DNA of 64,000 bases, taken from the NCBI RefSeq assembly GCF_036507355.1, contig NZ_AP027877.1; one strand, written 5' to 3'. This document shows positions 6,001 to 29,606 of this stretch, in pieces. The stretch is from Escherichia coli. GTDB lineage: Bacteria; Pseudomonadota; Gammaproteobacteria; Enterobacterales; Enterobacteriaceae. The notes beneath the pieces were generated by a model. That model ran no database searches. It saw only the letters and a list, made by a program, of their open reading frames with translations, and was not told the origin of the DNA. The position numbers were made by a program, and so were the translations under genes. Each line of letters opens with the position of its first letter. Position 1 is the stretch's first letter.

Positions 6001-6204
6001 CACCTCATCCAGCACGGCAACCGGGAGATGTGGGTTAATCTTTTGCAACTGCTCCAGTAGCACCGGGCGCAAAAACACATCGTGGAACGACGCACGCAGC
6101 GGATTGTTGCCATCTGGCGCAATATCCGGCCCGTGCAATACTTCCCAGCCCAGTTCAGCAAACCATTGCAGGCTTTGCTGTTCTAAATCGTCTTCGCTCA
6201 GCAT
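3070..6204 (-). CDS. hsdR: Type I restriction enzyme R subunit (1044 aa)
   Basis: It has Walker A (WHTQGSGKS), a DEAH box ([13 protein letters not shown]) and a long helicase core. It is the last gene of the hsdM-hsdS-X-hsdR operon. Its ATG overlaps the upstream stop (cTGATGc). Confidence 0.95.
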
Positions 6205-10468: not shown

Positions 10469-10830
10469 GTAAATCCTCGGGGTAGATCGCAGCGAAAGAG
10501 CAACCATGCCTTATCGCAAATTCAGTTTTGGAATGCAGTTCGCAAAATGATACCCGGTACACTTACGATTACAAATGCGCGGTATAAAGAAGTTTGCATT
10601 TGATCGGTGAATAATAGGAAACTCAGTCACTGTTTCGTCTGCAAAATCAGCCATTTCGCCTTCATACGTAGTTCTTCGGTTGAATAGTAAGGTCTATCAT
10701 GCTGCATCGAACGGTGATTTTGATGGATGTTGGAAGTGAGTAGCTGTACGTAATTTTTGATTAAAAGTAATCAAAATGTTGCCAATGGTTATGCTATCGT
10801 GTGTTTTTTGAATATATAACAGGTAAAACT

Positions 10831-11721
10831 ATGTCCTGGCTTAATTCTGTCTTATTGGCGCTTACCTCGGTGCAACCTTATATGGTACCGGCAACCGTTA
10901 TCGGCCTCGTCAGTTTTGCATTCCTCTGTTTTATTTTCTTTTATTTTTTTAGAGCAGTTAAAATTATTAACGGCCTGAAAAAATATACTCAGTCAATTAA
11001 TGGCATCGAAAATAATGAGCCTGGTAATCAGCTTCAGCATCTGCAAAGTTTGTTTGTACAGCCTGAGTTAAAGCACGCCTGGAATGAATTCGAAGAATCG
11101 TTGCACTCACAATATGAACTGGAGGACGGGGAAGAGAAAATCGTCCGTATTAGGGCTACTGCACCGAGCGCCAGTTTCTTCTCGGAGCAACAACTGGTCG
11201 ATATTCCGCTGAACACCGAATTTTTCAAACACCTGCCCGGTATTCTGACCGGTGTGGGGATTATCGGTACCTTCTACGGTCTGATGATTGGTCTCAACCA
11301 CTTCGACCCCAGCACACCAGAGCAGGTCTCCAGCAGCGTCAATAATCTGCTTCGCGATGTGCTGTACGCCTTCCTCGGTTCAGCATTTGCGATTACGTTC
11401 TCTATCCTTATCACCTGGCTGGAGAAATTCTGTCTGGCGAAATGCTACAAATATCTGGAAAAATTCACCGCAGCTCTCGACGCCCTCTATGACAGCGGTG
11501 TTGGCGAGGAGTACCTTGCCTCACTGGTAAAATCCAGTAATGAAAGCGCGACCCAGGCACGCCATCTGAAAGAGAGCCTGGTTACCGATTTACGCGATAT
11601 GCTGCTGCATCTGGCCAACAGCCAGAAAGTGGAAAACGAGCGGCTAGCGACCACCCTCAGCACCACCTATCGCGAAACAGGACAACAGTTTGCCGAGCAA
11701 GTCAGCGGTGCGATTGAAAAC
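10831..11721 (+). pseudogene. MotA/ExbB/TolQ-type proton-channel protein (ZorA-like N-terminal ~297 aa), truncated by IS629
   Basis: It has N-terminal TM helices, then LPGILTGVGIIGTFYGLMIGL and LYAFLGSAFAITFSILITW (MotA/ExbB-like TM pair), then the beginning of a long helical tail. The reading frame runs into the first bases (TGA) of IS629 at 11722. The start is ATG 10831 or the upstream GTG 10801. Confidence 0.6.
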
Positions 11722-11775
11722 TGAACCGCCCCGGGAATCCTGGAGACTAAACTTCCTGAGAAAGAGGTAAACAGG

Positions 11776-12102
11776 ATGACTAAAAATACTCGTTTTTCCC
11801 CCGAAGTCCGTCAACGGGCAGTCCGTATGGTTCTGGAAAGTCAGAGCGAATATGACTCACAATGGGCGACAATTTGTTCCATTGCTCCAAAGATTGGCTG
11901 TACGCCGGAGACTCTGCGTGTCTGGGTTCGCCAGCATGAGCGGGATACCGGGGGCGGTGATGGAGGGCTCACCACCGCTGAACGTCAGCGTCTGAAAGAG
12001 CTGGAACGTGAAAATCGTGAACTGCGCCGCAGTAACGATATCCTTCGCCAGGCTTCCGCTTATTTTGCGAAGGCGGAGTTCGACCGCCTCTGGAAAAAAT
12101 GA
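11776..12102 (+). CDS. IS629 OrfA (108 aa)
   Basis: The translation matches IS629/IS1203 OrfA from memory. It has an HTH and a leucine zipper, and ends in the A-rich slippery region (ggaaaaaatga). Confidence 0.9.
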
Positions 12103-12989
12103 TGCCACTGCTGGATAAGCTGCGTGAGCAGTACGGGGTCGGACCGCTATGCAGCGAACTGCATATTGCCCCGTCAACGTATTACCACTGTCAGCAACAG
12201 CGACATCATCCGGATAAACGCAGTGCCCGTGCGCAGCGCGATGACTGGCTGAAGAAAGAGATACAGCGCGTATACGATGAAAATCACAAGGTATACGGTG
12301 TGCGTAAAGTCTGGCGTCAGTTGTTACGGGAAGGTATCAGAGTGGCCAGATGCACTGTGGCACGTCTCATGGCGGTTATGGGACTTGCCGGTGTTCTCCG
12401 GGGTAAAAAGGTCCGTACGACCATCAGCCGGAAAGCCGTTGCCGCAGGCGACCGCGTAAACCGTCAGTTCGTGGCAGAACGACCTGACCAGCTGTGGGTG
12501 GCTGATTTTACTTACGCCAGCACATGGCGGGGCTTCGTCTATGTGGCGTTCATCATTGATGTGTTTGCCGGATACATCGTGGGGTGGCGGGTCTCATCGT
12601 CCATGGAAACGACATTCGTGCTGGATGCACTGGAGCAGGCGTTATGGGCCCGTCGACCGTCCGGCACGGTCCATCACAGTGATAAAGGTTCTCAGTATGT
12701 ATCGCTGGCCTACACACAGCGGCTTAAGGAAGCCGGATTACTGGCATCAACAGGAAGTACAGGCGACTCGTATGACAACGCGATGGCGGAGAGCATCAAT
12801 GGTCTTTACAAAGCGGAGGTAATACACCGTAAGAGCTGGAAAAACCGTGCAGAAGTGGAACTGGCCACACTCACGTGGGTGGACTGGTATAACAATCGAC
12901 GATTGCTGGAAAGGCTGGGCCATACTCCTCCGGCAGAAGCAGAAAAAGCTTATTATGCTTCCATCGGAAACGATGATCTGGCAGCCTGA
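12099..12989 (+). CDS. IS629 OrfB (DDE transposase catalytic part, 296 aa)
   Basis: DDE/rve-type motifs are present: WVADFTY..., [17 protein letters not shown]. Confidence 0.9.
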
Positions 12990-13153: not shown

Positions 13154-13999
13154 ATGTTACGTGGTTCAGAAAGAAAAGAAGCATTAGCCAGTCTCAAAAG
13201 TGCAACTAACCGTTATGAAGTACAGGCTAAAGACACCCAGGATGAGATCACTGCCCTCTTTCTGTTACGCCAGAAATGCAGTAAGGACCTGATTGCCCGT
13301 GGTGAAAATTTTGTTAATCGACTGGCGAATACACCGAAAGAGTTTGATAAATCCTGGAGCGAATTGAAAGCGGAAATCGCTGAATTTGATAACGTGGTGG
13401 AAAAACTGGAAGAAGAATACCGCGCATCACATATTGGTAAAGGAACGGCTGCTGCGGGGGTTGCCGTTGGGGCGGGGGTCGCCGCATTTGCCCCTACGGC
13501 TGCGCTGGCGGTCGCAACAACTTTTGGTACAGCATCCACGGGTACCGCTATTGCTACGTTAAGCGGAGCTGCCGCAACAAATGCAGCCCTGGCATGGCTC
13601 GGCGGCGGCGCACTGGCTGCGGGTGGCGGTGGCATGTCAGCAGGAAGCGCACTACTGGCTCTGGCGGGTCCAATAGGCTGGGGGATTGGTGCTGTAGGCA
13701 TCGCTGGCGGAACCTTACTAGCCCGTCGCAAAAACGGTAAAATCATTGATGAAGCACAACAGGAAGAGCGCCAGGTTCGCGCAAAAACCAGCGAACTTCG
13801 CGTGATGGAACGTGGTGCGCAAGAACTCAAGATGCTCACATCCGAGCACTATCATGGTACTGAAAGCATTATTGATGTGCTGGAAAAGGCTGCGCCTCAA
13901 GACTATTGCCAGTTTAATACCCATCAGAAAGATCAATTAGGGGCATTGATTAACCATATCAATGCATTATCAAAACTGATCAACAAGAAAATCCAGTAA
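13154..13999 (+). CDS. 281-aa coiled-coil protein with a central Gly/Ala-rich hydrophobic (glycine-zipper-like) region. Function unknown.
   Basis: AGGAG lies 7 nt upstream of the ATG. The N- and C-terminal thirds are charged and helical. The centre, GKGTAAAGVAVGAGVAAFAPTAALAVATTFG...LAGPIGWGIGAVGIAGGTLLARRK (~95 aa), is hydrophobic. Its stop overlaps the next start (TAATG). Confidence 0.75.
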   Translation: MLRGSERKEALASLKSATNRYEVQAKDTQDEITALFLLRQKCSKDLIARGENFVNRLANTPKEFDKSWSELKAEIAEFDNVVEKLEEEYRASHIGKGTAAAGVAVGAGVAAFAPTAALAVATTFGTASTGTAIATLSGAAATNAALAWLGGGALAAGGGGMSAGSALLALAGPIGWGIGAVGIAGGTLLARRKNGKIIDEAQQEERQVRAKTSELRVMERGAQELKMLTSEHYHGTESIIDVLEKAAPQDYCQFNTHQKDQLGALINHINALSKLINKKIQ

Positions 14000-15444
14000 T
14001 GAGCATTAACCATAATACAGTTGGCGACCAGCTTATCGGCAGCGCGGTTAACGCCATTAATCAGACCCGCATTGATAATGAACTGTTAAAACTATCGCAG
14101 CAGGATCGTGCATTTGAGTTGGCTGGCGAACAAATGCAAAAGGTGCGTGATTTCATCGCGTCACCGGGTAACATCCTGGGCTCAATGAGCACCAAACACG
14201 GTGAAATTGCTGAGCAGGTAGAAGTTGGCGTGCGCAATGCTCGCCAGGCAATAGAAGAAAGGGTTCAGGATGCCTCTGATCTTAGCGCCACGTTTGACGG
14301 AGTGGGTCGAACCGCTCCGGCGGATTATATGATAGATGGCGTTGACGTGCAGTCAAAGTTTATCAACGGAGTTAATAATAACCTGAACCATGTCCTTCAG
14401 CACATGGAAACCTATCCCAATTTCACCCGGGGAGAATCCTTTTACCATATCCCCAAAGACTCCTGGCAAACGATTCAGGATGTTATTGATGGGAAGCCGG
14501 TGGAGGGCTTGAGCGAAAAAACAATACAGGCTATCAGGGATAAAGTTGCAGAAATTGAAAGTACAACGGGAAGATCCTTTAATGATGTCGTGCGTCCTGG
14601 AGTTTCTGATTACAAAGATGTTCAGTGGGGAAAAATTGACGAAACTCTTGATAAACATGATCAGGAATTAGCGGAACAGAACGAGGCAAAAAAAGCAGAA
14701 ATTATTGACGATCACCAACCCTCCCTAAGTGAAGGCATGCGTGCAACCGCAATGGGAGCCGCTTTCGGTGGAACCTTTGCTCTTGTAACAGGTATATATA
14801 GCAAATACCGTGACGGTAAAAATATATTTCGTGGAGATTTCAACAGACAGGACTGGCAGGATGTCGGCTTAGATACATTGAAAGGTGCCGCTATTGGCGG
14901 TGTATCCGCCGGAGCAATTTATACCCTGACCAATTATGCCTCTCTGGGAGCACCGTTCGCCAGCGCGCTGGTCACTGCCGCTAAAGGTGTAAGCAATCTT
15001 GCTCTCTCCTATCAGCGCGGTGAGATTAATGCTGATGAATTTACCGATCTTGGCCTTATCATCTGCGCGGAATCGGCCATCGTTGGCGCAATGTCTGTCG
15101 CAGGTCAGGCAATCATCCCTGTGCCTGTTTTGGGGGCATTGGTTGGTTCTATCTCAGGGAAGTTTATGGTTACCGTAGCTAAAAATCTGGACAGTAAAGC
15201 ACGCCAATTGCTGGCGAAAAAAATGGAGCAATTTACATGTCGCTTAAGTGAGATTGAGCAGAAAGCACTCAACCGAATTTTGAACGAGTTCGCGGCGCTG
15301 GGTGAGCTTACCGCAGCTGCATTTAGCGTGGAAAACAATCGCCGGTTGCTGGAAGCAAGCATCACGCTTGCCCAAGCCCACGGTGTTGAAGAGGCGAAGA
15401 TAATCAAAAATGCGGATGATCTTGACACATTTATGATGGCGTAG
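13999..15444 (+). CDS. 481-aa protein with an N-terminal soluble domain (HG-x2-AE ... AD-x3-DG-x-DVQSKF) followed by a Gly-rich multi-helix membrane region. Function unknown.
   Basis: It is translationally coupled to the upstream gene. Hydrophobic Gly/Ala-rich segments span residues ~245-400. The soluble domain is paralogous to residues ~405-460 of the next protein. Confidence 0.75.
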   Translation: MSINHNTVGDQLIGSAVNAINQTRIDNELLKLSQQDRAFELAGEQMQKVRDFIASPGNILGSMSTKHGEIAEQVEVGVRNARQAIEERVQDASDLSATFDGVGRTAPADYMIDGVDVQSKFINGVNNNLNHVLQHMETYPNFTRGESFYHIPKDSWQTIQDVIDGKPVEGLSEKTIQAIRDKVAEIESTTGRSFNDVVRPGVSDYKDVQWGKIDETLDKHDQELAEQNEAKKAEIIDDHQPSLSEGMRATAMGAAFGGTFALVTGIYSKYRDGKNIFRGDFNRQDWQDVGLDTLKGAAIGGVSAGAIYTLTNYASLGAPFASALVTAAKGVSNLALSYQRGEINADEFTDLGLIICAESAIVGAMSVAGQAIIPVPVLGALVGSISGKFMVTVAKNLDSKARQLLAKKMEQFTCRLSEIEQKALNRILNEFAALGELTAAAFSVENNRRLLEASITLAQAHGVEEAKIIKNADDLDTFMMA

Positions 15445-15480
15445 CACTCGAATAAAAATTACAGCAAGGATAAAACCACA

Positions 15481-18003
15481 ATGCTACAGATAATTGGTGC
15501 GTTAATTTTACTGGTAATCGGTTTTGTTATTATAAAAGCGTTGTTTAAGGCATCTCTCAATATTCTAGGTGTGATATTAGGATTGGGTGCATTGATTGTT
15601 GCAGGCCCACCTTTATTGGCGGGCTATATTGTAGAGCGCGTAACCTATGCGCTTCACTCACGTTGGCTGCTGGGTGTACCTCTTGCCATAGCAGGAATGG
15701 TGATTAGCTTTATGTGGGGACTTGATGGTAAACATATTGCCTACGAAGCCTATTCATTTGATTCAATGAAGTTTATTTTAACCGCTGCATTTGCCAGTGG
15801 CCTGCTTGCAGTACCTGTACAAACCAAGGCTATTCTACAAAACGGGCTTATACCAGCCGATATCAATGCCAAACTTAAAGAGTATTATTGCTGTTTTTAT
15901 ACGTCTTACTTTTTGATGGCCTGCTCTGCGGCTACACCGTTTATAGCCTGGCAATATAATATCTCATCTTCACTGATGTGGTGGACAGGATTGCTATACT
16001 GGATAGCAGCCTTACTGACACAGTTCTATGCGGCAAACCAAATTCAGGAACTCAAGAAGTTAACTAATGCCATCAATACAGGGTTAAATGAGCAAAAAGC
16101 GATCAATAACCAACTTTGGCTGACGGAACTAAAAGAAGGAAGTAACCTCTCAGCAGAATTCGTAGAGACTATCTATCTTAAGTTGGTCTCACAGCATATT
16201 TTTCAGGGCGATACTCGAGAGCAGGATCTGGCTGGTGAAAACTGGCTTTTAAATGATGCCTGGTATGAAAGAAAGATGGCTGAATTTAATGAGCAGTTAA
16301 ACAGTAAAATTGTACACTCATCAGATGAGCTAAGAAGCCTTTTTGGTAATAGGCTGAATTTACCCTCTGCTGCGAATGATGATCTCCTGAACCGTTATCT
16401 TGATGGTGGGAACTATTATTCTTTTTCGGATGGTCGAAAATTTGTCTCGTTTCACTATGTCGACGAGCTTTGTACCTGCACTTCATGCGGTTTGAGCGAG
16501 ATTAAAAACGCAAAACACCAGGACGGTTGTGGGAGCCAGGAATGGTATTGCTCTGATATTTGCCGGGAAACGGAAAAACTCTGCATTGAAATTCACAAGC
16601 GACCACAGGCTGAATTTATTTCCAGTGCAGCAACAAACGGTCTGATTCTCATGACGCTCCCGGAGGCCTGGAATACTAACGAAAAAATGTTTGCAGTGGG
16701 AGGACAAGGACATGGTTTTGCAGCCGAACGGGGAAATCATCTTACTGACAAAATCCAACTAAAAGATGCACATATTCTCGGTGATGATAATGCGAAAAAT
16801 GGTGCAGACAGGCTGGTTAACGGTTCAGAGATTCAGACCAAATACTGTGCAACCGCTGCACGTAGCGTCGGTGCTGGTTTTGACGGACAAAACGGTAATT
16901 ATCGCTATTATGACAGTAACGGAACCCCAATGCAGTTAGAGGTTCCGAAAGACCAGTATTCGAAAGCGCTTGAAACGATGGAGAACAAAATTCGCGATGG
17001 CAAAGTCCCCGGCGTTACCGATCCTGCAGAAGCCACAAAACTTGTACGTCAGGGACACCTGACTTATAGCCAGGCACAAAACATTACTAAGTTTGGCACG
17101 TTCGAATCTATCACTTACGACATTGCGGAAGGATCTATCATCAGCCTCGCAGCTGGAGGTATCAGCTTCGGTCTGACAGCTTCTATTTTCTACCTCAATA
17201 CCGGCGATCGTAAGGCTGCGTTGCAAACGGCAGCAATACAGGCAGGTAAAACATTTACCCGCACACTGACAGTTTATGTGACGGTACAGCAATTACACCG
17301 TATCAGTGCCGTTCAGGGGTTACTTAAAAATATTGATTTTGCCGCTGCCAGCCCGACAGTTCGTAATGCGCTTCAACAGGGAGTCGGAGCTAACAATCTC
17401 AACTCCCTTAACAAGATGATGCGTGGCACACTGGTTACCTCTTTCGCACTGGTCGCCGTGACCACTGGTCCGGATATGATCAAAATGGTGCGAGGTCGTA
17501 TTTCTGGGGCACAGTTTATAAAAAATCTGGCAGTTACTTCATCTGGTGTGGCTGGGGGGGCAATTGGTTCTATTGCTGGCGGAATGATGCTTAGTCCATT
17601 AGGTCCTTTCGGTGCTTTAGCAGGACGCGCAGCTGGTGGCTTGTTAGGCGGTATGATTGCCACAGCGATTTCCAAAAAAATAGCGGGTGCACTGGTTGAA
17701 GACGACCGAGTAAAAGTGCTGGCTCTCATCCAGGAACAGGTTACATGGCTTGCAACAAGTTTCATGCTTACAGCACACGAACTTGAAAACCTGAACGCGA
17801 ATCTGGCAACAGTAATTGACCAAAAAACCCTGGAGGTTATCTTCGCCGCAAAAGAGCAAGACCGAGCAACGGCCAATATGCTGATTAAACCACTTGTAGT
17901 AAGTGTGGTTAAGCAACGACCGGTCCTGAGCTATGAACAATCGCAAATCTGCGAAATGGTCGATCAGCTTGATACATCGGTTTCATTATCTGCTGTTGCA
18001 TAA
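15481..18003 (+). CDS. 840-aa polytopic membrane protein. It has ~6 N-terminal TM helices, a Cys-rich (MYND/zinc-ribbon-like) segment, an HGFAAE...ADRLVNGSEIQTKY domain and a C-terminal Gly-rich membrane region. Function unknown.
   Basis: AAGGA lies ~10 nt upstream of the ATG. TM-like stretches span residues 1-185. The Cys cluster is CTCTSCG-x14-C-x6-YCSDIC-x6-C at residues 331-368. Unverified recollection: the N-terminus resembles YeeR-type inner-membrane proteins of E. coli CP4-44-like islands. Confidence 0.75.
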   Translation: MLQIIGALILLVIGFVIIKALFKASLNILGVILGLGALIVAGPPLLAGYIVERVTYALHSRWLLGVPLAIAGMVISFMWGLDGKHIAYEAYSFDSMKFILTAAFASGLLAVPVQTKAILQNGLIPADINAKLKEYYCCFYTSYFLMACSAATPFIAWQYNISSSLMWWTGLLYWIAALLTQFYAANQIQELKKLTNAINTGLNEQKAINNQLWLTELKEGSNLSAEFVETIYLKLVSQHIFQGDTREQDLAGENWLLNDAWYERKMAEFNEQLNSKIVHSSDELRSLFGNRLNLPSAANDDLLNRYLDGGNYYSFSDGRKFVSFHYVDELCTCTSCGLSEIKNAKHQDGCGSQEWYCSDICRETEKLCIEIHKRPQAEFISSAATNGLILMTLPEAWNTNEKMFAVGGQGHGFAAERGNHLTDKIQLKDAHILGDDNAKNGADRLVNGSEIQTKYCATAARSVGAGFDGQNGNYRYYDSNGTPMQLEVPKDQYSKALETMENKIRDGKVPGVTDPAEATKLVRQGHLTYSQAQNITKFGTFESITYDIAEGSIISLAAGGISFGLTASIFYLNTGDRKAALQTAAIQAGKTFTRTLTVYVTVQQLHRISAVQGLLKNIDFAAASPTVRNALQQGVGANNLNSLNKMMRGTLVTSFALVAVTTGPDMIKMVRGRISGAQFIKNLAVTSSGVAGGAIGSIAGGMMLSPLGPFGALAGRAAGGLLGGMIATAISKKIAGALVEDDRVKVLALIQEQVTWLATSFMLTAHELENLNANLATVIDQKTLEVIFAAKEQDRATANMLIKPLVVSVVKQRPVLSYEQSQICEMVDQLDTSVSLSAVA

Positions 18004-18840: not shown

Positions 18841-19072
18841 CGCCTCTTTGATAACGCATCATACTGCCAGCGGAATAACTCTCTTCGTCAATACGGCTCT
18901 CGCTGTACGCTTACCCATCTAGAGAGGTTTCAGGTGATTATCGATGTCAGAAGACTGAATGATTCAGTCGTTTACTTTGAGATAGATCAGAGGTTTTTCA
19001 CTACCTGTGTTCATCACATGGCTACGAATAGTAGAATCCAAGCATAAATTAACGCTTAGAAAAGTTGAGCTC

Positions 19073-22000
19073 ATGAGATTCCACCCTGAAGGGCCTTCCA
19101 TACCCGATATCCTCTTAGAACGCTGTGATACAGGTCGAGTTGTATTTCTCTGTGGCGCTGGGGTTTCATTACCTTCAGGGATGCCAAGCTTTGTAGAGCT
19201 TACCCAGCATGTAATTGAATACTTTGACCCACCACACGATTCAGAAATCATGGCAGCATTTCGCCCATGGCTTCACGACCAATCTTCAGCTAATGTCCCT
19301 CTCGACCAAATTTTCAACCTCCTACATCTGGAATATGGCAAGGATGAGGTGAATGCTTTGGTATCAAAGCGTCTGGGGACTGCAAGAACTGATATAGAGA
19401 TTGGACGTGAGCATGCCCTGATTAAAAGAATTTCCTCAAATCAGAGTGGTGTCCCACAGATTGTCACAACGAACTTTGACCGACTGTTCGAGGATAACCA
19501 AGCGCAAGATAATCTAACTCGATATGTGCCGCCAGCTTTCCCAAATCTGAATTTCGGTTCGACAATTGAGGGAATAACATATCTTCACGGCCGCCTGGTC
19601 GACGAAAATGCTGTAAACCATCCTTATGTGCTGAGCAGTGCAGACTTTGGAAGAGCATATCTTTCAGAAGGATGGGCGACCAATTTTATTAAGCTTCTTC
19701 TGGAACGATACATCGTTGTTTTGGTCGGTTATCAGGCAGAAGACCCACCAGTTAAATACCTCCTTCAGGGTCTCAATCATGATGGCCAGTATGATCGTTC
19801 CAGACTTTATGCATTTGATCGCGGCCTTGCCGAGGATATCGAAGCCAAATGGCGTGACAGAGGAGTTACAGCCATAGCCTATTCCGATCATCCAGCTCTT
19901 TGGAAGACTTTGGAAGCATGGGCTGAGCGAGTAGATGATCCACGTCGATGGCGAGCTTCTATTATCGCTAAAAGCCAGCAAGATCCGAAAGTTCTAGCAC
20001 CGTATGAACGTGGTCAACTTGCCCATATACTTCGCACTACACAAGGTGCGAAATTGTTCTCTGAAGCTGTTCCTCTTCCCCATCCAGAGTGGCTTTGTGT
20101 GATGGATGCAAATATTCGGTCAGCCAAACAGAAGAAAAGATACTACGAACTTGATGACAATGATGCAGAGACCTTCGATCCACAAGAAGCTTATGGGCTT
20201 GATGACGATCTGCAAGATATCGCTGATGATGAACGTAAACGTGGAGTGAGTAACGATAATCTCCTTGAATAGCGCGACGAAGATGATAACCCGTCAGATT
20301 ACCATCGCTTGGCTGGATGTTTGGAGACAATGCCGAAACGATTGAGCCATCTCATGGTCTGGTTCTGCAAATCTCTTGATAGCCCCGTGATGGCTTGGTG
20401 GGCTATCCGAAAAATCAGTATTCATCCTCTACTACTACAAAATATTGAACGCAATATTGAGCATTCAACATCAATCCACAAACGCGCTCGTCAACTGTGG
20501 GGCTTAATTCTTGAACATCATAAAGATCCCCGCAATCGTCGTTATGACGTCGATTGGTACGACTTAAAAGCTCGAATTACAAAACAAGGCTGGACAGCTG
20601 GTGTCTTACGAGAATTTCGTAGGGTAATGACACCCCGATTGGAAAAGAAGTTGCCGTATGGATTGGGTGAAGTCAGACCGCCAAGCGGCTCCTGGGAGGA
20701 AATTCAGTTCAGCGAATTTGGCCAATTTGAAGTTGTGTTCACCGAAAGACATGATGACGATTTAGACGTACCTGACAATGTATTACTACAAGTATTTAAT
20801 GCCTTAGAAGCGCAAATAATAATTGCCTCCGGAATGTTAGAGGATATTGATACGCACTACTTTCCAAGCCCAAGTTGTTATCCAGAACGTGCGGTTGAAG
20901 GAGAAGAACATTTCGCGAAAGGTGCGGAGGTATTAACTTGGTTTGTCCAACTTTTAGACCGAGTTGTTATGAAGTGGCCAGAATTGGCTAAGGCATAAGT
21001 AACAACTTGGCCAGTTAAGGAGCCATTTTTCTTCCGAAAGCTTAGACTTTATGCATTCAGTAAAAAAGGCGTCTTTGAGGCTGACCGTGTTGCCGAAGAG
21101 CTTTTGTCTTTGGATCAAAGTGGATTTTGGGACACAAATATTACCCGCGAACTTCTTTTTCTGCTCACTGATCGTTGGGAAGAATTCTCGCAAGAAAATC
21201 AGAATCGAATTATAGAGCATATATTAACCGGCCCGAACCATTTACTTTATTTGTCTGAGGAAGACATTCCAAAAGAAAGAGAGATATTAGCAGCTAGATA
21301 CGCTCGTTATCTCGAACTAAACGGCTGTAAAGTAACCACTATTCATCGTGACCAACTAACTGCGATGATTAAAAGAATTCCTGACTGGAATGATGGCTGG
21401 GCTACATCTGTTGTCATCAATTGGGGTTCACGGACAGGTTGGGTTCGTACAGACGAAAAGCCAGATATAATCTTAGATCTTCCAGCAAACGAAATAATCC
21501 CAAAAGTAAAAGAGATACTTAAACGAGAGGATGATAGCTTTACTAGTAGGCAACCCTTTGTCGGATTGATAAAAGAAAATCCGCGTAAAGCTTTGTCTGC
21601 ACTCGCTATTGCAGGGAGAGGCGGTGATTACCCTAAGGAATTTTGGTCGCCAATGATAAGTGAGTTACCTATAGATCTTAAACCAAGGGTGAGACGAGTA
21701 TTCCTGAACCGAATTGTGCGATTGCCAGTTACAGCTTTGGTCGAGTTACGACATACATTAAGTAACTGGCTTGAACAAAATTTAGCTGCGACTCTTGAAT
21801 TTGATGAGGATCTCGGGTGGGCAGTTTACGATCATGTCATAGCAGGCATACTGAGTGGTGGCGCCAGTGCAATACGGAGTAGTTTCGGAGAAGTTATCCG
21901 GAATGGAGAAGTTGTAATACAGTCTCGCCGCACGTTCAGTCATGCAATCAATGGTCCTGTCGGTAAATGTACTCAAGCGCTTTTTCAAGCAATGCCAAGT

Positions 22001-22882
22001 GAAGAGAAAAAAGCTGGTTCGCTTATTCCTTACTCTATTAAGTCTCGTATTGAACATCTTTTTACTGCACCAGGAGAAGGAGCGGACCACGCTATAGCTA
22101 TAACGTCTCGCAATCTAAATTGGCTAATGTTTGTTGATCCTGCATGGGTAAAGGAATGGCTTATACCCCTTTTGGATTTAAAACATCCTGCAGCAGAACC
22201 AGCATGGAATGGTTATCTTCAGTGCAATGCTATGCCTTCAATTGCAGTAGCTGAACTTATTAAACCAGCTTTTCTTAACCTTATCCCTTGGATCGAATCT
22301 CTTTCTTGGGAAAAAGATTATTCAGTTCGAGCTTCGCAATGGCTTGGCTTAATGAGAATGTTTCACCCTGATGAGCCCTCCAGTCCTTCCAGGAATGAAA
22401 TGCGCTCCATATTACGAGCATTATCTGACGAGGCTCGAAATCGTTTTATTTCCTGGTTAGGATTGGTCGGGCAGAAAAACGAGAGTGGCTGGGTTAAGTA
22501 TGTGATCCCATTAATCAGAGAGGACTGGCCCAAAGAACGCCAATATAGAACCACGAGCTCTGTAAAAGCATGGATTGGTTTACTTGACGATACTGGCGAT
22601 AAGTTTCCGGAGGTTTACGATTCAGTAAAAACATACTTAGTACCAATCGAGACAATTGATCATTTGTTCTACAGATTCACTCGGGAGCTCGGTGGTAAAG
22701 GAGCAATTGCGGCTATTTTTCCAGAAACCACGCTTGATTTAATGGACAAAATAACACCACTGATATTCACGCGTACATCAGGAGAGCTGCAGAAGATTCT
22801 TGAGCTAATTGAAGATACAGATACAAGTCTGATCAAGGATTCTCGGTACTTACGGCTTATTGCACTGGTTGAGAAAAATTAG
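19073..22882 (+). pseudogene. ~1270-codon SIR2-domain (DSR-like defence-associated sirtuin) ORF interrupted by two in-frame stop codons (TAG 20270-20272, TAA 20996-20998)
   Basis: Track ORFs 19007-20272, 20309-20998 and 21104-22882 are all in the same frame, and the frame stays open between them. The N-terminal SIR2-type motifs are VFLCGAGVSLPSGMPSF, QIVTTNFDRLFE, YLHGRL and VLVGYQAEDPPV. The rest is a long helical region. Confidence 0.75.
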
Positions 22883-23040
22883 CATTTATGGTTTTTTACC
22901 GTTGTTGATTACTCAGCAACACTTTTCGACATGCCGTAGCGCTTATCGCCTGTTCTTGACTAAGATGAGAAGCAGGCGTTAAAGTTTGGTTAAAGGAGAA
23001 CCTCTAACCATTCCTTCTGGAAGAAATAATCTTTGGAGTA

Positions 23041-23763
23041 TTATTGAAATTGCTCAAATATACCATGCAACCCAATAAATTTTATTTTTAGTGCAGGATC
23101 ATGCCTTAGAACAGTCTCAAGTGAGTTCCGCTCATAAATTATTGATTGTGCTTGTATTGAGCCGTTCCATGAAGGCAAAAGCAGTAAAGCAGATGTTTCC
23201 AAATCAATACCCCACCAATCGTTAACATAGCAATTTAAAAAATCAACAAGAGCCTTAATCGCAATAAAAGCATCTTTTTCGGTATATGTTTCAGGATCGA
23301 GGGATATACCTGATATATTACTTTTAGCTTGCTCGGAATTAATATTAGACTGGTGTTGATAAGCAATTTTTCCTTCACCCGGTTTAGTTTCTATTGTATC
23401 AGTGAAAATTTTAATCTTAGGATGCACCAATGCATTTCGTTGTGCTATTAATTCTTTTATTATTTGTGTTTGAGTGGTTCCACGAGGTAAAGACATGTCT
23501 TTATGCCATTGAAGAGTATAGTCAAATTTATCAAGTGAAGAGAACCTGTCAATTTGATCTTTTAACTTTTGCGTTATTTCTATAGAAGATAAAAATGAGT
23601 TAGCTGCAGCCTCAATAGCGTAGTTAATTGAAAGTACACTTGATTTGGCAAGTGTTTTTTTGATGTGTGATTTTTTTGTTGCAGCTGATAATTCATAAAG
23701 AGTTATTGCATCAGAAAAAAGCTCAAAAAAGCTGTTCTTGGTTATTTCAACTTTTCTTTTCAC
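23041..23763 (-). CDS. ~240-aa protein with a HEPN-type RNxxxH motif (putative RNase effector)
   Basis: The motif ELIAQRNALVHPK (R-N-x3-H) lies in a helical N-terminal half. The probable start is GTG 23763 (GAGGG 6 nt upstream); the track start is TTG 23769. It is the last gene of an AT-rich minus-strand operon. Confidence 0.6.
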   Translation of the reverse strand: MKRKVEITKNSFFELFSDAITLYELSAATKKSHIKKTLAKSSVLSINYAIEAAANSFLSSIEITQKLKDQIDRFSSLDKFDYTLQWHKDMSLPRGTTQTQIIKELIAQRNALVHPKIKIFTDTIETKPGEGKIAYQHQSNINSEQAKSNISGISLDPETYTEKDAFIAIKALVDFLNCYVNDWWGIDLETSALLLLPSWNGSIQAQSIIYERNSLETVLRHDPALKIKFIGLHGIFEQFQ

Positions 23764-23852
23764 ACGCAACCCTCTGCATAAAAAATAAAATCATATAGAC
23801 AGAATACAATTTCCTATAATCTTTACATTCTACTAATTGTGGATATAAATGG

Positions 23853-25325
23853 CTATCGAGAATAAGAACTGGGTTTAGGAAAACCACCTCTGACGACGAC
23901 AACAACAATTGCAACTTGAGATTGACCTGTTGGATGAGTGAATACTTCAATATCATCCTCTATTACTCCCACCGGCGCTGATTTTGACGTTGATTCCAGA
24001 ACAACCAAAATACCGATACGCTTACCTAATCCAATGGCATAAGCTGCTGTTTGATCGAAATATTTTTGAAAATCCTTGGGAAAAAGAACCTTATTATTTT
24101 CAACTTTTAGTTCTATCGGAATGTCTTCAAATGTGAGATCCGTTATCCCGCCAGCAGCCTCTGGATGGCCTTGTAATTTCTCGCCAATCTCATTCCTACT
24201 TCTAAGCATTTCGGCTATTTTACGCTGAAATTTTTGCTCTGATGTGCCAGCAATAAATAAACTAGCTTTAAGAGCTTGTGCTGCAACATTTCCTAAGCCG
24301 CCAAGTATAACCATTGTATTAGCAATGTCATCTGAGTGTAATCCAGGGAAAGCTCGTAATATGTTACGAATTTTTATAAGATGCCTATCGACGTTTGAAA
24401 ATCCAGTTAATGGAGCTTGAGCGGAATCACTCCCTTCAAGTAGTAAGCGCCTATGTCCTACGATAGCAATATTTTGGCAATTACTTAAATTGTCAAACTC
24501 GGCAGCATATAGGAATTCGTAAGGTCTCGAGCCAAATGAATTTGCCACTTCCAAGACGACACGACCGATCCCCTTCAGTGTGAAGGGGCCTTCCCCCTCT
24601 GGTTTCTCAAATCTAAAATCAGGCAACCAGTCTCGCTCACGAGCATCAATTGTCACTGGCTTTAATGAGAGGAAATTTGCACTTTTTGGCCAATTTGAAA
24701 CCCTGACCTCTATGTTAAGGTCATAAGCCGTACCCGGCTTAAGATAATTCCATTGCTGAGCTGGTTCCCCATCAATATCAAACTTTAGAAATGCAACTGT
24801 CGATTCTTGTGTTTTATTCTCTTTTGTCTCTTTACTAGATATTCCTTGCCTAATCTCCTCAATATTTTTATCGCGAAGATTTGCGAATAAGAGTAGTGGC
24901 AATGACCAGCTTGTTAACTGGTCTTGTATTTGTTTTAATGAATCTAATTTACTGATTGAACGGACTTGCTCTATAAATTCATTAAATTGTTTGTTCTCCG
25001 AGAGACTCGTCGTCATGTCGATCTCTGATGCTTTTAATTGTGCTGAATTTAAAAACCTTTGAGCATCAGTCTCAGCATTACGTATAGCATGTTTCCACTC
25101 AGCTAGAGTTACAAATATAGTCATTGCTATATAATATGCACGATATTGATCTTCAACATATCCCTGACCGAGCTCATCGAGCGTTTCATTGAGCTTTTGA
25201 CACGCTTCTTTAAGTTTCACCAAGTCATTCGGAATGGACTTGAGTGCACCATCCAACGCTGCTGCAATCTCAACCCTCGGAGAAAAAGCTTGGCGGAAAA
25301 TCTCGAAATTTGGCTCGTTCTTCAT
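23853..25325 (-). CDS. ~490-aa protein with a C-terminal PD-(D/E)xK nuclease-like domain carrying a RecB/Cas4-type QxxxY motif
   Basis: The start ATG 25325 is preceded by GGAG at 7 nt. The C-terminus reads GGITDLTFEDIPIELKV...YFDQTAAYAIGL (D ... ExK ... QxxxY). It has a helical N-terminus and a beta-rich middle. Confidence 0.65.
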   Translation of the reverse strand: MKNEPNFEIFRQAFSPRVEIAAALDGALKSIPNDLVKLKEACQKLNETLDELGQGYVEDQYRAYYIAMTIFVTLAEWKHAIRNAETDAQRFLNSAQLKASEIDMTTSLSENKQFNEFIEQVRSISKLDSLKQIQDQLTSWSLPLLLFANLRDKNIEEIRQGISSKETKENKTQESTVAFLKFDIDGEPAQQWNYLKPGTAYDLNIEVRVSNWPKSANFLSLKPVTIDARERDWLPDFRFEKPEGEGPFTLKGIGRVVLEVANSFGSRPYEFLYAAEFDNLSNCQNIAIVGHRRLLLEGSDSAQAPLTGFSNVDRHLIKIRNILRAFPGLHSDDIANTMVILGGLGNVAAQALKASLFIAGTSEQKFQRKIAEMLRSRNEIGEKLQGHPEAAGGITDLTFEDIPIELKVENNKVLFPKDFQKYFDQTAAYAIGLGKRIGILVVLESTSKSAPVGVIEDDIEVFTHPTGQSQVAIVVVVVRGGFPKPSSYSR

Positions 25326-27843
25326 ATTCTTTCTCCAACTCAGCCGTAAGACCATTCCATTTTTCAATTAAGTCATTATAGGGTTCGCAAACACTTATGG
25401 CATGTTCAATGCTAGCTGCTTCTGTAACTAAAGCAGCCTTAAGTTTCCATTGTGTATTTCTTTCATCATTTGGAATTTCTTCCAGTAGTTCCTTTAAACA
25501 AACATTTGCAGTTACGTTATCACCACACTTGCTTAACGCAGCCACGTACACTAATGCTTCAATAAATTGTTGAGGTTTAAATGGTTTCAGAGCATTGAAT
25601 GCTTTTTGGAGATCGTCTTTACAATTTCGAAGCTCATTATGTGGCGCTCTTAATATCACTGAGATGCAGTCATCAATAGAAATACTGCGAGTATACTCAT
25701 CCTGAATTGCTTTGAGTGCGACTTTGACAAAACCGGGAATATCATCAAAATGAAAACGCAATCGATTGATAGCATCATAAAGTGCACTTCCTTCTAAAAT
25801 TAATAATATATTAGAAAGAAGCAATCCAATTTTCCCCTTTCTCTCTTCATCTGATAAGCAAAGAGAAGAAAAAACGTCAATGCATTCTACAATGAAATTA
25901 TCTTTTTTATCTTGTTGAATATAATAGCAAATTAGATTCCATAGCCGGGATCTCACAAGTCCCCGTTTCTCCTCAGGAAAAGATCTACGGCTCAAAGCGC
26001 GAACAGCATACTGATGCACCATAACATATTGATCTAATAGCAAGACTGAATATGCTTCGAAGAATAAATCTGGGAAATTCTTCACTAAATCATAGGGAAC
26101 ATTTTCCCACGCTTGTACGGCACGTGCTCGAATCAATGTACTCTCATCCATAAGAGCACGATACCAATCGGAGAGCACTAGTGTTAGGCTGTCAATACCA
26201 GTTAATAACTTAGAAACATGGGCAATCATGTTCCCACGCATTTGAGTTTGTTCTTCTGGTAAGCTTCTATAGAGATGAAGAAAATCATCGATTCCTTCAC
26301 TCCCTCTAGATTTAGCTCCAATCGCAGCCCATTCAATCAATGCACCCTGTAAGCCATCAATAGCATTACGCTTATTACTTTTATCTAAATGATCTAGAAA
26401 ACTCTCATTTATTTCTATGATTTTTTCTTTATTCAACGCCTCAAATTTCTCGCTTAGCGTTGCAGCCGCTCCGATCAAATCGTCAAAATTATCAACTGCA
26501 AGCTCAGCAAATTCGTCCCAAGAGTGTCTAAAGAATTGTCCTGCATCATCCATGCTATCCTCTGGATTTTCCACAGCAGCCCAGAGCAAACGCCTAAAAG
26601 CTATTTTTTGTGTCTTTCCTGTTTTACTTTTTTTTCTATAGTTATTTCGCAGTACAGATCTGTAAGCTCTATTGGCCTCATGTCTCCCAATATCATCTTT
26701 GTCAGCAAGATAGGATTGAATAACTTTATCGCTTTCATCGGGAAATCTATCTAAGTATTTCGTAGCAGCCTCCCGAAGAAAGAAAAGAATGCTGCTATCT
26801 CTCCGCTCCTCCGGGAGTAGAGTCCGTCGACGCATCAGCTTAGCAAATATACTTCTAATATGTCTTAGAAGCAGCTCATCATCATCCGATGCAATAATTA
26901 TCTCAATAGCAAATTGAAATTTTCCCCGGTGAGTATCTTTTATGTATTCATCAACAACATCACAGATATCAGCTTGTCTTTTTTTAAAAAGTGACTGAAT
27001 GGGGCCTTTATTAAGTACTTTTCGCTCAAATGTGCCAATCATCATTCCAGGAGGAGATTCAACAGCCATTCTAACAAAGTGGTAAAGGACTTTTAAGAAA
27101 TCATCTTCAGATAGATTCTCTGCTTCCAAGAGGATTGCTTCTATAGCTGGTGGACAATATTCGAAGTTGTTTATTAAATATACTGAAATTGCCAGTTTTT
27201 CCGCTTGTGATAATTCAGTTCTTATTAAAGCTTTTGCTGCTGGCATTGAATATGGTAATTTCTCATGTAACACTGCAGGCAACAAGTGTTCAATTATTTT
27301 ACTTGTAAATGTCTCAGGTGCCAGATTAGCAAGTTGTTCCAAACGGGGATCGTTGTTCTCTATATCCTCTTGATCGAGTTCATCAAGCAAATCAAGCACA
27401 AACGTTTCTTCTAGAGTAAGTGAAAGACGTAATACTGCTCGTTCTTGTTGTCTATTGAGCTGCTTCTGCTTTCTCTGCCTTTCTTCTTCTTTGCGAGCCA
27501 AATTTCGTTCTTCGGCAGATTTTTCTCTTGGGCCTACAAACTCTAAAATATTGGGAAATCCCACCGGAACCCGTTGATTACAATGTTTACAGTTCTGTTT
27601 ATAGAAGCTGTAAACCGAGTCTTCCAGCAGCCAGCTAAGCATTGAACTTTGCTTAACAAATTTGCATTGAACTCCCATGTGACCAATGGGTAACCCTGTT
27701 TCAGCCTCAATCATGCCTCTCCCCTCTGATCGAATGAATTCAGAGTGAGAACACCAGTTACTAAGTAGGTGTACAGCACGGAGATTTCGTTGACCAGCTT
27801 CGATTGCCTCTTCAAATCTTTTTTTATCTTCAAAATCATCCAT
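25270..27843 (-). CDS. 857-aa all-helical (HEAT/ARM-like) protein with an N-terminal Cys/His cluster. Function unknown.
   Basis: The ATG is preceded by AAGGGTG at 8 nt. The N-terminal cluster is CSH...H-x4-C...CKHC (residues 31-88), followed by a K/R/E-rich coiled coil and ~700 aa of helical repeats. I found no P-loop, DEAD or other catalytic motif. Confidence 0.7.
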   Translation of the reverse strand: MDDFEDKKRFEEAIEAGQRNLRAVHLLSNWCSHSEFIRSEGRGMIEAETGLPIGHMGVQCKFVKQSSMLSWLLEDSVYSFYKQNCKHCNQRVPVGFPNILEFVGPREKSAEERNLARKEEERQRKQKQLNRQQERAVLRLSLTLEETFVLDLLDELDQEDIENNDPRLEQLANLAPETFTSKIIEHLLPAVLHEKLPYSMPAAKALIRTELSQAEKLAISVYLINNFEYCPPAIEAILLEAENLSEDDFLKVLYHFVRMAVESPPGMMIGTFERKVLNKGPIQSLFKKRQADICDVVDEYIKDTHRGKFQFAIEIIIASDDDELLLRHIRSIFAKLMRRRTLLPEERRDSSILFFLREAATKYLDRFPDESDKVIQSYLADKDDIGRHEANRAYRSVLRNNYRKKSKTGKTQKIAFRRLLWAAVENPEDSMDDAGQFFRHSWDEFAELAVDNFDDLIGAAATLSEKFEALNKEKIIEINESFLDHLDKSNKRNAIDGLQGALIEWAAIGAKSRGSEGIDDFLHLYRSLPEEQTQMRGNMIAHVSKLLTGIDSLTLVLSDWYRALMDESTLIRARAVQAWENVPYDLVKNFPDLFFEAYSVLLLDQYVMVHQYAVRALSRRSFPEEKRGLVRSRLWNLICYYIQQDKKDNFIVECIDVFSSLCLSDEERKGKIGLLLSNILLILEGSALYDAINRLRFHFDDIPGFVKVALKAIQDEYTRSISIDDCISVILRAPHNELRNCKDDLQKAFNALKPFKPQQFIEALVYVAALSKCGDNVTANVCLKELLEEIPNDERNTQWKLKAALVTEAASIEHAISVCEPYNDLIEKWNGLTAELEKEYEERAKFRDFPPSFFSEG

Positions 27844-27898
27844 TTAGATAACACCCTTATAAGGAACATGTACTCATCTAAAATGCTGTTACCGGATT

Positions 27899-27927
27899 AT
27901 TATACCTAAAACAATGAATGCTGTGTA
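27899..27927 (-). promoter_or_regulatory. Putative sigma70 promoter of the three-gene operon
   Basis: On the minus strand it reads TACACA (-35, 4/6) - 17 nt - TATAAT (perfect -10), ~50 nt upstream of ATG 27843. Confidence 0.35.
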
Positions 27928-28246
27928 TTATGAAATGTGATATAAGTCAATTAGTTACATATAAAAACCAACTCACATCCAAAAGGATAGTATTTCGAGG
28001 TTTGTAGCATCATTAAATGTGAACTTATTTATCGCCCCCTCAAGTTAACTAATAAATAAGTTATAATTTACATATACTTCTGGAATTTAGAAACCTTATA
28101 TCTAATAGTTGAGTAAGTTAATAATCAACTTGAGTGTGATTCATAAAAAAAATAATTATTATTTTCAGCCCCTCCATTATGGAGGAGCAATAATAGTATA
28201 GTTTTCCTGTATTCCTAACGATCCAGTTAGGCTTAGAGAAATCTAA

Positions 28247-29443
28247 TTATGAAGCACTCCTGAGAGCAACCCTTCCAACTTTATCAATATAATCCGCATA
28301 CCACTGCATCATCTCTCTCCTGCCTTCCAAATACAGCGCATGGTTGTACGTCCCGCGAATCGCATTCTTATCGACATGCGCAAGCTGGGTTTCAATCCAT
28401 GCGGTATTGAACCCTTCCTCATGCAAAATCGTACTCATCGTGTGGCGGAAACCATGCCCCGTTACCTTCCCCGTGTACCCAATCCGCTTAAACACCTGAT
28501 TAATACTCGCTTCGCTCATTGTTTTGCGGGGATCATTCCTCCCAGGAAACACCAGAGGATATTGCCCAGACATCACTTTGAGCTGCTGTACGATCTCCAG
28601 CGCTTGGGTAGAGAGGGGCACCAGGTGAGGCCGTTTCATCTTCATGCGCTCTGCAGGTATTTCCCACACCGCTTTTTCAAGATCAAACTCACTCCAGAAA
28701 GCACCTCGAAGCTCACCGGTGCGAACCCCCGTAAGGATCAGCAAACGTGCGGCAAGAACAACCAGCGGGCTGCCTGTATAGCCAGAAAGAGCTTTAAAGA
28801 AATCTGGTAACTCCTCAACGGTAAGGAAGGGATAATGCTTCGATTCATGCCCTGACATCGCGCTGGTTAGATCCGCAGCCGGATTGTATTCCGCACGACC
28901 GGTAACTATGGCGTAGCGAAAGACTTCGCTGCAGCGCTGGCGAACTTTCTTGGCCTTCTCTGTCGCACCACGGCTTTCCATTCGACGCAGTACATTCAAC
29001 AGAACAAGAGGCTTAATTTCATTGACTGGCTGCTGACCGATATAGGGAAAAATATCTTTATTTAAAGCTTCGATAATGTCCGATGCATACCCTTCTGACC
29101 ATCTGCTCACCTTCGTACCGTGCCACTCAAGCGCCACAGACTGGAACGTATTATTGAGCTGCACATCACGAACCAGCTTTTCTTCTTTCTTGGCAAACGA
29201 TGGATCGATACCCTCGGCCAGCTTTTTCTTGGCTTCATCGCGTAGTGCCCTCGCTTGAGCAAGGGACACTGCCGGATAAACGCCAAAAGCCATACGCTTC
29301 TCTTTTCCATTGAAGCGATATTTCATTCGCCAGTATCGAGAACCAGAGGGAACGACTTCAAGATACAAACCAGCACCATCTGCCAGCTTATAGGCTTTCT
29401 CTCTGGGTTTAGCTGCATCTACCTGTCGCGCATTTAGCTTCAT
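28247..29443 (-). CDS. P4-type tyrosine integrase (398 aa)
   Basis: The start MKLNARQVDAAKPREKAYKLADGAGLYLEVVPSGSRYWRMKYRF is a typical P4-integrase N-terminus. The catalytic residues are LTGVRTGELR, HGFRHT and LAH...GTY. Confidence 0.9.
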   Translation of the reverse strand: MKLNARQVDAAKPREKAYKLADGAGLYLEVVPSGSRYWRMKYRFNGKEKRMAFGVYPAVSLAQARALRDEAKKKLAEGIDPSFAKKEEKLVRDVQLNNTFQSVALEWHGTKVSRWSEGYASDIIEALNKDIFPYIGQQPVNEIKPLVLLNVLRRMESRGATEKAKKVRQRCSEVFRYAIVTGRAEYNPAADLTSAMSGHESKHYPFLTVEELPDFFKALSGYTGSPLVVLAARLLILTGVRTGELRGAFWSEFDLEKAVWEIPAERMKMKRPHLVPLSTQALEIVQQLKVMSGQYPLVFPGRNDPRKTMSEASINQVFKRIGYTGKVTGHGFRHTMSTILHEEGFNTAWIETQLAHVDKNAIRGTYNHALYLEGRREMMQWYADYIDKVGRVALRSAS

Positions 29444-29606
29444 TGGGGGCATCTCCCTGGACCGAACACAGAATGCCCCCACTTATGCCCCCAACTGTAA
29501 CTTGATTCCGGTTGAGTCCAGTTGATAACAGGAGATAAAATACGGGCTAGAAACCGCAGTATACGGGCTTTTAGTTGATTTCGGTAGACTTGGGAAGAGT
29601 TTGAAA

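Follow-up and report, generated by a model that had tools for sequence, protein, structure and literature searches.

The locus considered here raises the question of whether three neighbouring genes in an island of Escherichia coli form a single undescribed defence system. The genes lie on the minus strand between positions 23041 and 27843 of a 64,000-nucleotide (nt) stretch of contig NZ_AP027877.1 (RefSeq assembly GCF_036507355.1), and this whole stretch is hereafter called the window. A preliminary description of the sequence had proposed the trio as an undescribed system consisting of a large helical protein, a nuclease-like protein and a HEPN-like protein. We found that the first two genes match a named anti-phage system, Olokun, and the third gene was judged to be an independent neighbour of Olokun rather than a subunit. 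An Olokun copy and a separate, independent HEPN-like gene, standing side by side as island cargo, are quite probably what this locus holds.

The table of open reading frames (ORFs) of the window contained the three co-directional minus-strand ORFs. Gene 1 (oloA, 25270..27843) starts with ATG and encodes 857 amino acids (aa), gene 2 (oloB, 23853..25325) starts with ATG at 25325, encodes 490 aa and overlaps oloA by 56 nt, and gene 3 (23041..23763) starts with GTG at 23763 and encodes 240 aa. Genes 2 and 3 were listed from the upstream TTG codons at 25367 (504 aa) and 23769, respectively; their real starts were set by the lengths of homologues and by the RefSeq annotation of identical E. coli DNA. 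The preliminary description was accurate in the layout of the region. The guanine-plus-cytosine content was 0.34-0.40 over 23000-28000 and 0.42-0.52 on both sides, the trio was flanked by a tyrosine integrase and a broken SIR2 gene as claimed, and Shine-Dalgarno-like sequences could be read ahead of all three starts. The TATAAT reported upstream of gene 1 was also present, as the minus-strand arrangement TACACA, 17 nt, TATAAT at 27899..27927, located about 55 nt upstream of oloA and agreeing with the consensus at 10 of 12 positions. As the region held 17 promoter-like sites against 17.1 expected from shuffled sequence, this site is regarded as a consensus match only. The trio was found in 7 of 5,426 complete E. 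coli genomes, with all three genes annotated as hypothetical proteins.

PADLOC, run as the preliminary description had proposed, assigned two of the three genes to an already named system. Gene 1 matched the OloA model (PDLC03925) with an E-value of 7.5e-77, residues 43-854 being aligned to profile positions 17-576 of 596, and gene 2 matched the OloB model (PDLC03926) with an E-value of 5.5e-58, residues 22-504 of the listed ORF being aligned to profile positions 2-551 of 556. By these profile matches, oloA-oloB is a copy of the known two-gene anti-phage system Olokun, and for genes 1 and 2 the idea of an undescribed system does not hold. In addition, an LmuA model (E 5.9e-14) was matched at its nuclease end by the C-terminal 128 residues of OloB, which are residues 376-503 in the numbering of the listed 504-aa ORF. 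Searches of the three trio proteins against Pfam, NCBIfam and PHROGs gave nothing significant.

In mapping the defence islands of E. coli, Hochhauser et al. (2023, PMC10121019) included Olokun among the validated systems and credited it to their reference 7. In the window, oloA and oloB are adjacent and co-directional with oloA first, which is the gene order of Olokun. The reference 7 credited by Hochhauser et al. is reportedly the 2022 work of Millman et al. The name Olokun is not used in the Millman preprint (10.1101/2022.05.11.491447).

A scan with an OloB alignment, in which one genome per species was considered, gave 25 OloAB loci spanning Enterobacterales, Nitrospirota, Chlorobiaceae, Campylobacterota, Sphaerochaeta, Synergistaceae, Arenicellales and other groups. 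An OloA homologue was located directly upstream of oloB in all 25, and the two genes overlapped by 50-56 nt wherever oloA was complete. Between E. coli and the copies of Nitrospirota, Chlorobiaceae, Sulfurospirillum, Sphaerochaeta and Synergistaceae, the identity was 65-71% for OloB and 58-66% for OloA, and OloB of a Synechocystis copy was 67% identical to that of the window. Such unusually high identity between phyla implies wide horizontal transfer of this Olokun clade under strong constraint. The overlap itself (25270-25325 in the window) was maintained from E. coli to Nitrospirota and Campylobacterota with both reading frames conserved, and this conservation suggested translational coupling of the two genes.

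The protein features that the preliminary description had read in genes 1 and 2 proved to be real. In the N-terminal Cys/His cluster of OloA, C31, H55, C60, C85 and C88 were invariant among 22 OloA sequences from several phyla, while H33 was conserved in 86% and H87 was not conserved. Residues 31-88 (27580-27753 in the window) probably constitute a metal-binding cluster, one that is not mentioned in the available literature passages on Olokun. OloA also carries a K/R/E-rich segment. A pattern search detected no Walker-A motif in any of the three proteins, in agreement with the earlier view of gene 1 as a large helical partner without an NTPase motif, and OloA is the non-catalytic partner of Olokun.

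The D/ExK/QxxxY motif of gene 2 corresponded to D396, E405, K407, Q425 and Y429, which were invariant in 22 OloB sequences; these sequences were 65-88% identical to the window copy, so that the conservation test is weak by itself. Together with the match to the LmuA nuclease region, the invariant residues point to a PD-(D/E)xK-type nuclease, as had been suggested. OloB is laid out as an N-terminal helical region, a predicted beta-rich middle region and a putative C-terminal PD-(D/E)xK-type nuclease module. The AlphaFold2 model of OloB was poor overall, with a predicted local distance difference test (pLDDT) score of 54.7; it placed a strand at 404-409, a helix at 416-432 and then three strands, so that its C-terminal part was compatible with the motif. 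No Pfam match was obtained for the C-terminal 121 residues of OloB or the N-terminal 134 residues of OloA searched alone, a sequence search of PDB gave no solved relative for the OloB profile or for OloA, and OloB had no match in IMG/VR.

A 2025 preprint deals with PfOlokun, a purified homologue (10.1101/2025.07.10.664194). In it, OloA is described as adaptin-like and OloB as a PD-(D/E)xK nuclease, a mass of about 278 kDa in mass photometry is read by the authors as a 2:2 OloA:OloB complex, and the two PD-(D/E)xK domains of the complex are predicted to lie side by side. According to the same preprint, PfOlokun degraded T7, SECphi17 and SPO1 DNA in vitro, with a plasmid apparently nicked, and left E. 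coli genomic or plasmid DNA uncut (10.1101/2025.07.10.664194). The activity was seen only at 1 uM, and mutation of the OloB active site reportedly abolished complex formation (10.1101/2025.07.10.664194). In the window system, OloA with its conserved N-terminal Cys/His cluster may be the sensing or regulating subunit, which would license OloB to cut phage DNA during infection.

The relation of gene 3 to Olokun was then judged from both sides, beginning with the oloAB loci. Gene 3 was present beside oloAB in 2 of the 24 assessable loci, those of Serratia bockelmannii (L002) and Yersinia proxima (L003), and was absent from the other 22 across phyla; the preliminary description had taken the trio as one system, and synteny did not bear this out. 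The nearest oloAB relatives were among those lacking gene 3 in tblastn searches. One of them, in Serratia sp. JSRIV001 (OloB 75% identical), lies between a helix-turn-helix gene and an integrase gene. In the Enterobacteriaceae loci L036-L038 (positions 3319-12339; OloB 84% identical), oloAB is carried as cargo; an arm-type integrase and a 214-aa ORF flank it at one end, AlpA and DUF927 genes at the opposite end. In our reading, this layout resembles a P4-like satellite.

Gene 3 adjoined oloAB only inside one block of about 9 kb in Enterobacterales, in which oloA-oloB-gene 3 faces the SIR2-family defence gene DSR1; outside this block, the sequence after oloB differed from locus to locus. The block was carried by E. 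coli, Serratia, Yersinia and the metagenome contigs L040, L041 and L051. Window positions 18994-28468 were 95% identical to the Serratia locus and 19002-28012 were 82% identical to the Yersinia locus, and DSR1 was located 158 nt past the gene 3 stop in every copy with enough sequence. All of these genes belong to one block and diverged together, and gene 3 is linked to oloAB no more tightly than to DSR1. The 89-nt spacer between oloB and gene 3 (23764..23852, minus strand) contains the gene 3 Shine-Dalgarno sequence GAGGG and a weak promoter-like site at 23855-23827; it was alignable in all block-carrying loci, with lower conservation in L003 and L051, which are more distant. Gene 3 of L041, together with the spacer downstream of it, had diverged further (90-95%) than oloAB of that contig (97-99%), suggesting that the two parts had separate recombination histories.

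Conversely, homologues of gene 3 occurred without OloAB at no fewer than 15 loci. Those with 77% identity or less were scattered over unrelated contexts, and tblastn detected neither OloA nor OloB within reach of them. In Vibrio parahaemolyticus (L027, positions 7861-8842), a homologue with 54% identity was flanked by two attC-like repeats (about 120 nt each, 857 nt apart) with no other gene between them. These repeats were part of an array of their kind, and the homologue is therefore a single-gene integron cassette. The same array has also been deposited as a 57-kb 'plasmid'. Other homologues were located between a helicase-PLD protein and a KAP NTPase in Budviciaceae, near a protein combining AAA_21 and DUF4435 in Alkalimonas, in two different contexts in Shewanella, a few kb from a TIR-domain protein in P. 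viridiflava and, in one case, between HicAB and RelB/ParE gene pairs. On a gut-metagenome contig, a homologue with 79% identity followed two ORFs, one resembling an aminoglycoside nucleotidyltransferase and the other the reverse transcriptase of a group II intron, and further metagenome contigs carried homologues without OloAB. E. coli itself has a paralogue (49% identical; L057-L060, positions 8001-8723) that is far commoner than gene 3, occurring in 340 indexed blocks. This paralogue sits in an int-AlpA-DUF927-SSB-RecD-like helicase element, neighboured by an MmeI-type restriction-modification gene and a T5orf172 protein.

A natural deletion was found in Enterobacter hormaechei (L055, pRHBSTW-00844_2, positions 7009-10110), where oloAB had been lost between the equivalents of window positions 27775 and 23876. 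The two alignments overlapped by 12 nt at the junction. Gene 3 was retained with 95% identity and now lies just downstream of the oloA promoter region, and DSR1 was interrupted by elements of the IS3 family of insertion sequences (IS).

As for its own character, gene 3 contains AQRNALVHP, noted earlier as a canonical HEPN motif, at R109-N-x3-H114. R109 and H114 did not vary in any of three alignments, which comprised 23, 35 and 28 sequences. The third reached down to 19-28% identity, and E51, N55, K79, R109, H114 and F175 were its only invariant residues; R-N-x3-H is thus the most conserved feature of the family. The number of homologous clusters increased with the depth of the search, from 45 by a single-sequence search to 107 at 90% identity by a profile search, both mainly in Gammaproteobacteria, and to 619 at 50% identity (E <= 0.001) by a hidden Markov model search of 1.84 billion representatives. 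Nearly all of the 619 clusters were 220-260 aa long and aligned end to end. Gene 3 had no significant match in PADLOC, Pfam, NCBIfam or PHROGs (in PADLOC, none at E <= 1). Among its relatives, 13 had no PADLOC match at E <= 0.01, and 10 sampled distant members had no Pfam or PADLOC match, every source annotation of these 10 being hypothetical protein. No gene 3 homologue was found in 50,697 phage records, and IMG/VR gave one distant match.

The AlphaFold2 model of gene 3 (pLDDT 86.7) had HEPN domains as its closest folds, with Z-scores below 8 throughout: 7.8 for AF0298 HEPN (2hsb), 7.2 for both ST0689 (1wol) and sacsin HEPN (3o10), 6.9 for the HepT toxin (5yep), 6.7 for Csm6, 5.9 for LsoA, 5.7 for AbiA and 5.4 for AbiV. 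After the Rx4H motif, the model has about 45 additional residues that include a beta-hairpin. Several relatives gave sub-threshold Pfam matches to HEPN_RiboL-PSP, HEPN_Apea, HepT-like and HEPN_Swt1 (best E 0.003), and a PDB sequence search with the gene 3 profile gave no relative of solved structure. The invariant motif and the modelled fold favour the HEPN-like character given to gene 3 in the preliminary description, and by sequence comparison the gene is a member of an unnamed family of stand-alone HEPN-like proteins of about 230-250 aa. Gene 3 is under purifying selection, with a ratio of nonsynonymous to synonymous substitution rates (dN/dS) of 0.13 at a synonymous divergence (dS) of 0.81 against the Yersinia copy; the values for oloA and oloB were similar. 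A HEPN/MNT pair was considered and rejected: neither the gap that separates oloB from gene 3 nor the interval from gene 3 to DSR1 contained an ORF of at least 60 aa, no gene for MNT or another antitoxin was called next to gene 3, and the Vibrio cassette holds the gene 3 homologue alone.

Gene 3 may act as a self-contained, infection-triggered RNase of the abortive-infection type that does not need OloAB, in the manner of single-gene HEPN Abi proteins. The broader proposal is that it founds an undescribed family of HEPN abortive-infection proteins, each encoded by one autonomous gene, with about 600 clusters at 50% identity and no Pfam model. This is tentative, and we put its chances slightly below even. 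Several observations weigh against the view of gene 3 as an independent HEPN-type defence gene. In Foldseek, HEPN toxins were the top PDB matches of the gene 3 model, none of them significant (best E 0.44), and the Pfam HEPN models did not match window gene 3 or, at threshold, any of its relatives, so the HEPN assignment is graded as likely, with moderate confidence. The case for a defence role is made from neighbourhoods alone, which were judged by eye. In addition, gene 3 follows oloB on the same strand after 89 nt in which no terminator is predicted, and it has kept this position through a dS of about 0.7-0.8.

This last arrangement speaks for the idea that gene 3 has been recruited in an Enterobacterales lineage as a third component of Olokun, either as a second, RNase effector beside the DNase OloB under OloA control or as a regulator of OloAB. 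A scan for terminator-like sites on the minus strand of the spacer found none, co-transcription of oloAB and gene 3 is possible, the arrangement was present in every block copy examined (E. coli, Serratia, Yersinia and three metagenome contigs), and dS and dN/dS were alike for the three genes. We nevertheless regard a three-component Olokun as improbable: 22 of the 24 assessable loci, the nearest relatives among them, lack gene 3, its homologues are autonomous in many contexts down to the integron cassette, it survived the oloAB deletion in E. hormaechei, and its divergence in L041 suggests a history of its own. The linkage in the block is also not specific to oloAB, because the convergent DSR1 is equally conserved there. 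That same conservation, DSR1 lying at the constant distance of 158 nt in every sufficiently long copy and gene 3 having stayed by the DSR1 remnant in E. hormaechei after the loss of oloAB, could be taken to mean that gene 3 is functionally paired with DSR1 and not with Olokun. This idea is highly improbable and was rejected: the two genes are convergent and therefore not co-transcribed, DSR1 in the window has two nonsense codons while gene 3 is intact, and tblastn detected no DSR1 near gene 3 homologues in the other sampled contexts. DSR1 was also, reportedly, described as a single-gene system by Gao et al. in 2020.

A further possibility is that gene 3 has no role in defence and is a selfish or housekeeping HEPN-like hitch-hiker in mobile cargo, such as an addiction module resembling a toxin, a factor in RNA processing or a HEPN protein without catalytic activity, with Olokun as the sole working defence in the interval. 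No defence-family model matches gene 3 or its relatives, many non-defence genes ride integron cassettes and islands, and some contexts have toxin-antitoxin neighbours instead of defence genes. We consider this unlikely, though it deserves to be weighed seriously. Known or candidate defence genes were located within a few kb in several independent contexts, namely the helicase-PLD and KAP NTPase pair, the AAA_21-DUF4435 protein, an AAA_15/21 ATPase, the TIR protein and the MmeI-type restriction-modification gene, and the window copy itself has Olokun on one side and DSR1 on the other. Both the invariance of Rx4H and the strength of the purifying selection speak for catalytic activity of the protein. 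Moreover, single-gene cassettes with only a HEPN-like domain can be protective, as in the case of Esos, a V. cholerae integron cassette that protects against phage (10.1101/2024.07.02.601686). An independent gene 3 beside Olokun remained our preferred reading of the locus.

If a member of the gene 3 family does protect against phage, it would represent a compact new single-gene defence system, convenient for studying how a HEPN RNase that acts alone is held inactive when no antitoxin is present. The family, with proteins of about 240 aa, is sizeable and is not covered by any model of Pfam, NCBIfam, PHROGs or PADLOC v2. For Olokun the locus adds little, being one more copy of a named system detectable by standard tools; the invariant OloA Cys/His cluster, the oloA-oloB overlap shared across phyla and the conservation of the clade could help work on the Olokun trigger. 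A three-component arrangement, if true, would be a new three-gene variant of Olokun.

The trio region is cargo of an integrase-borne, decaying defence island, and the earlier claim of defence cargo beside the island integrase held. The integrase (minus strand; 28247-29482 or, in a narrower delimitation, 28247..29443) is an arm-binding tyrosine integrase of P4/CP4 type with Arm-DNA-bind_3, Phage_int_M and Phage_integrase domains. On the other side, DSR1 (19073..22882, plus strand) is convergent with gene 3. Its window copy is in three fragments, two of which matched the PADLOC Dsr1 models (E 1.6e-44 and 2.3e-44), yet the reading frame is not intact, having in-frame stops at 20270-20272 (TAG) and 20996-20998 (TAA); as read from these stops, it is the inactivated third system of the shared block.

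Farther into the island, four large ORFs of 1044, 411, 480 and 582 aa (3070-10507, minus strand) match hsdR, the DUF4268 gene, hsdS and hsdM of strain ET826 in size and order, and by size and order only they correspond to type I restriction-modification genes. A ZorA1 fragment (10801-11724, plus strand) covers the N-terminal 295 of 727 positions of ZorA1 and is followed by an ORF for an IS3-family transposase with an rve domain (12099-12989, plus strand). As the fragment is cut by the IS element, and as the corresponding position of ET826 is occupied by a full set of type I Zorya genes (zorA-D), Zorya has been lost in the window. Matches to PDC-M09A (13154-13999, plus strand; PADLOC E 2.4e-120) and PDC-M09B (13999-15444, plus strand; PADLOC E 2.9e-214) are followed by an 840-aa ORF (15481-18003, plus strand) that lacks Pfam domains and weakly resembles PDC-M09B in one region (E 6e-5); the interval 13154-18003 may be an unvalidated PADLOC candidate defence system with a third, paralogue-like gene. 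An arsC remnant is also present in the island, and a tRNA scan of the window found none.

Compared with known systems, the window locus is closest to Olokun. Both proteins match the family models strongly, the genes form a two-gene, co-directional, overlapping unit carried as island or satellite cargo, OloA is large, helical, adaptin-like and without an NTPase motif, and OloB bears the C-terminal PD-(D/E)xK motif. The window copy differs in the length of OloA, whose 857 aa against a 596-position profile indicate long insertions, in its membership of a very conserved clade (58-71% identity between E. coli and distant phyla), and in the HEPN-like gene 89 nt downstream, which canonical Olokun lacks. 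With an LmuA nuclease variant of Lamassu (PADLOC PDLC03853), the likeness is confined to the C-terminal 128 residues of OloB, which align to the C-terminal nuclease region of this LmuA model; the rest of OloB is unrelated, there is no SMC-like LmuB or LmuC partner in the window, and the partner is OloA. DSR1 is the identity of the neighbouring gene, an intact Serratia copy of 1269 aa matching the Dsr1 models over the full length, whereas the window copy is inactivated by two nonsense mutations and is not part of the trio. Esos has only a HEPN-like domain, as gene 3 appears to have, a likeness by description only. From the stand-alone HEPN proteins AbiV, HepT, LsoA/RnlA and Esos, gene 3 differs in matching no PADLOC or Pfam model of any of them and in the extra beta-hairpin segment after Rx4H. 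It shares with them the Rx4H motif, a predicted helical fold that best matches HEPN domains including HepT, LsoA, Csm6, AbiA and AbiV, and the occurrence of its family as a single small gene in integron cassettes and defence islands.

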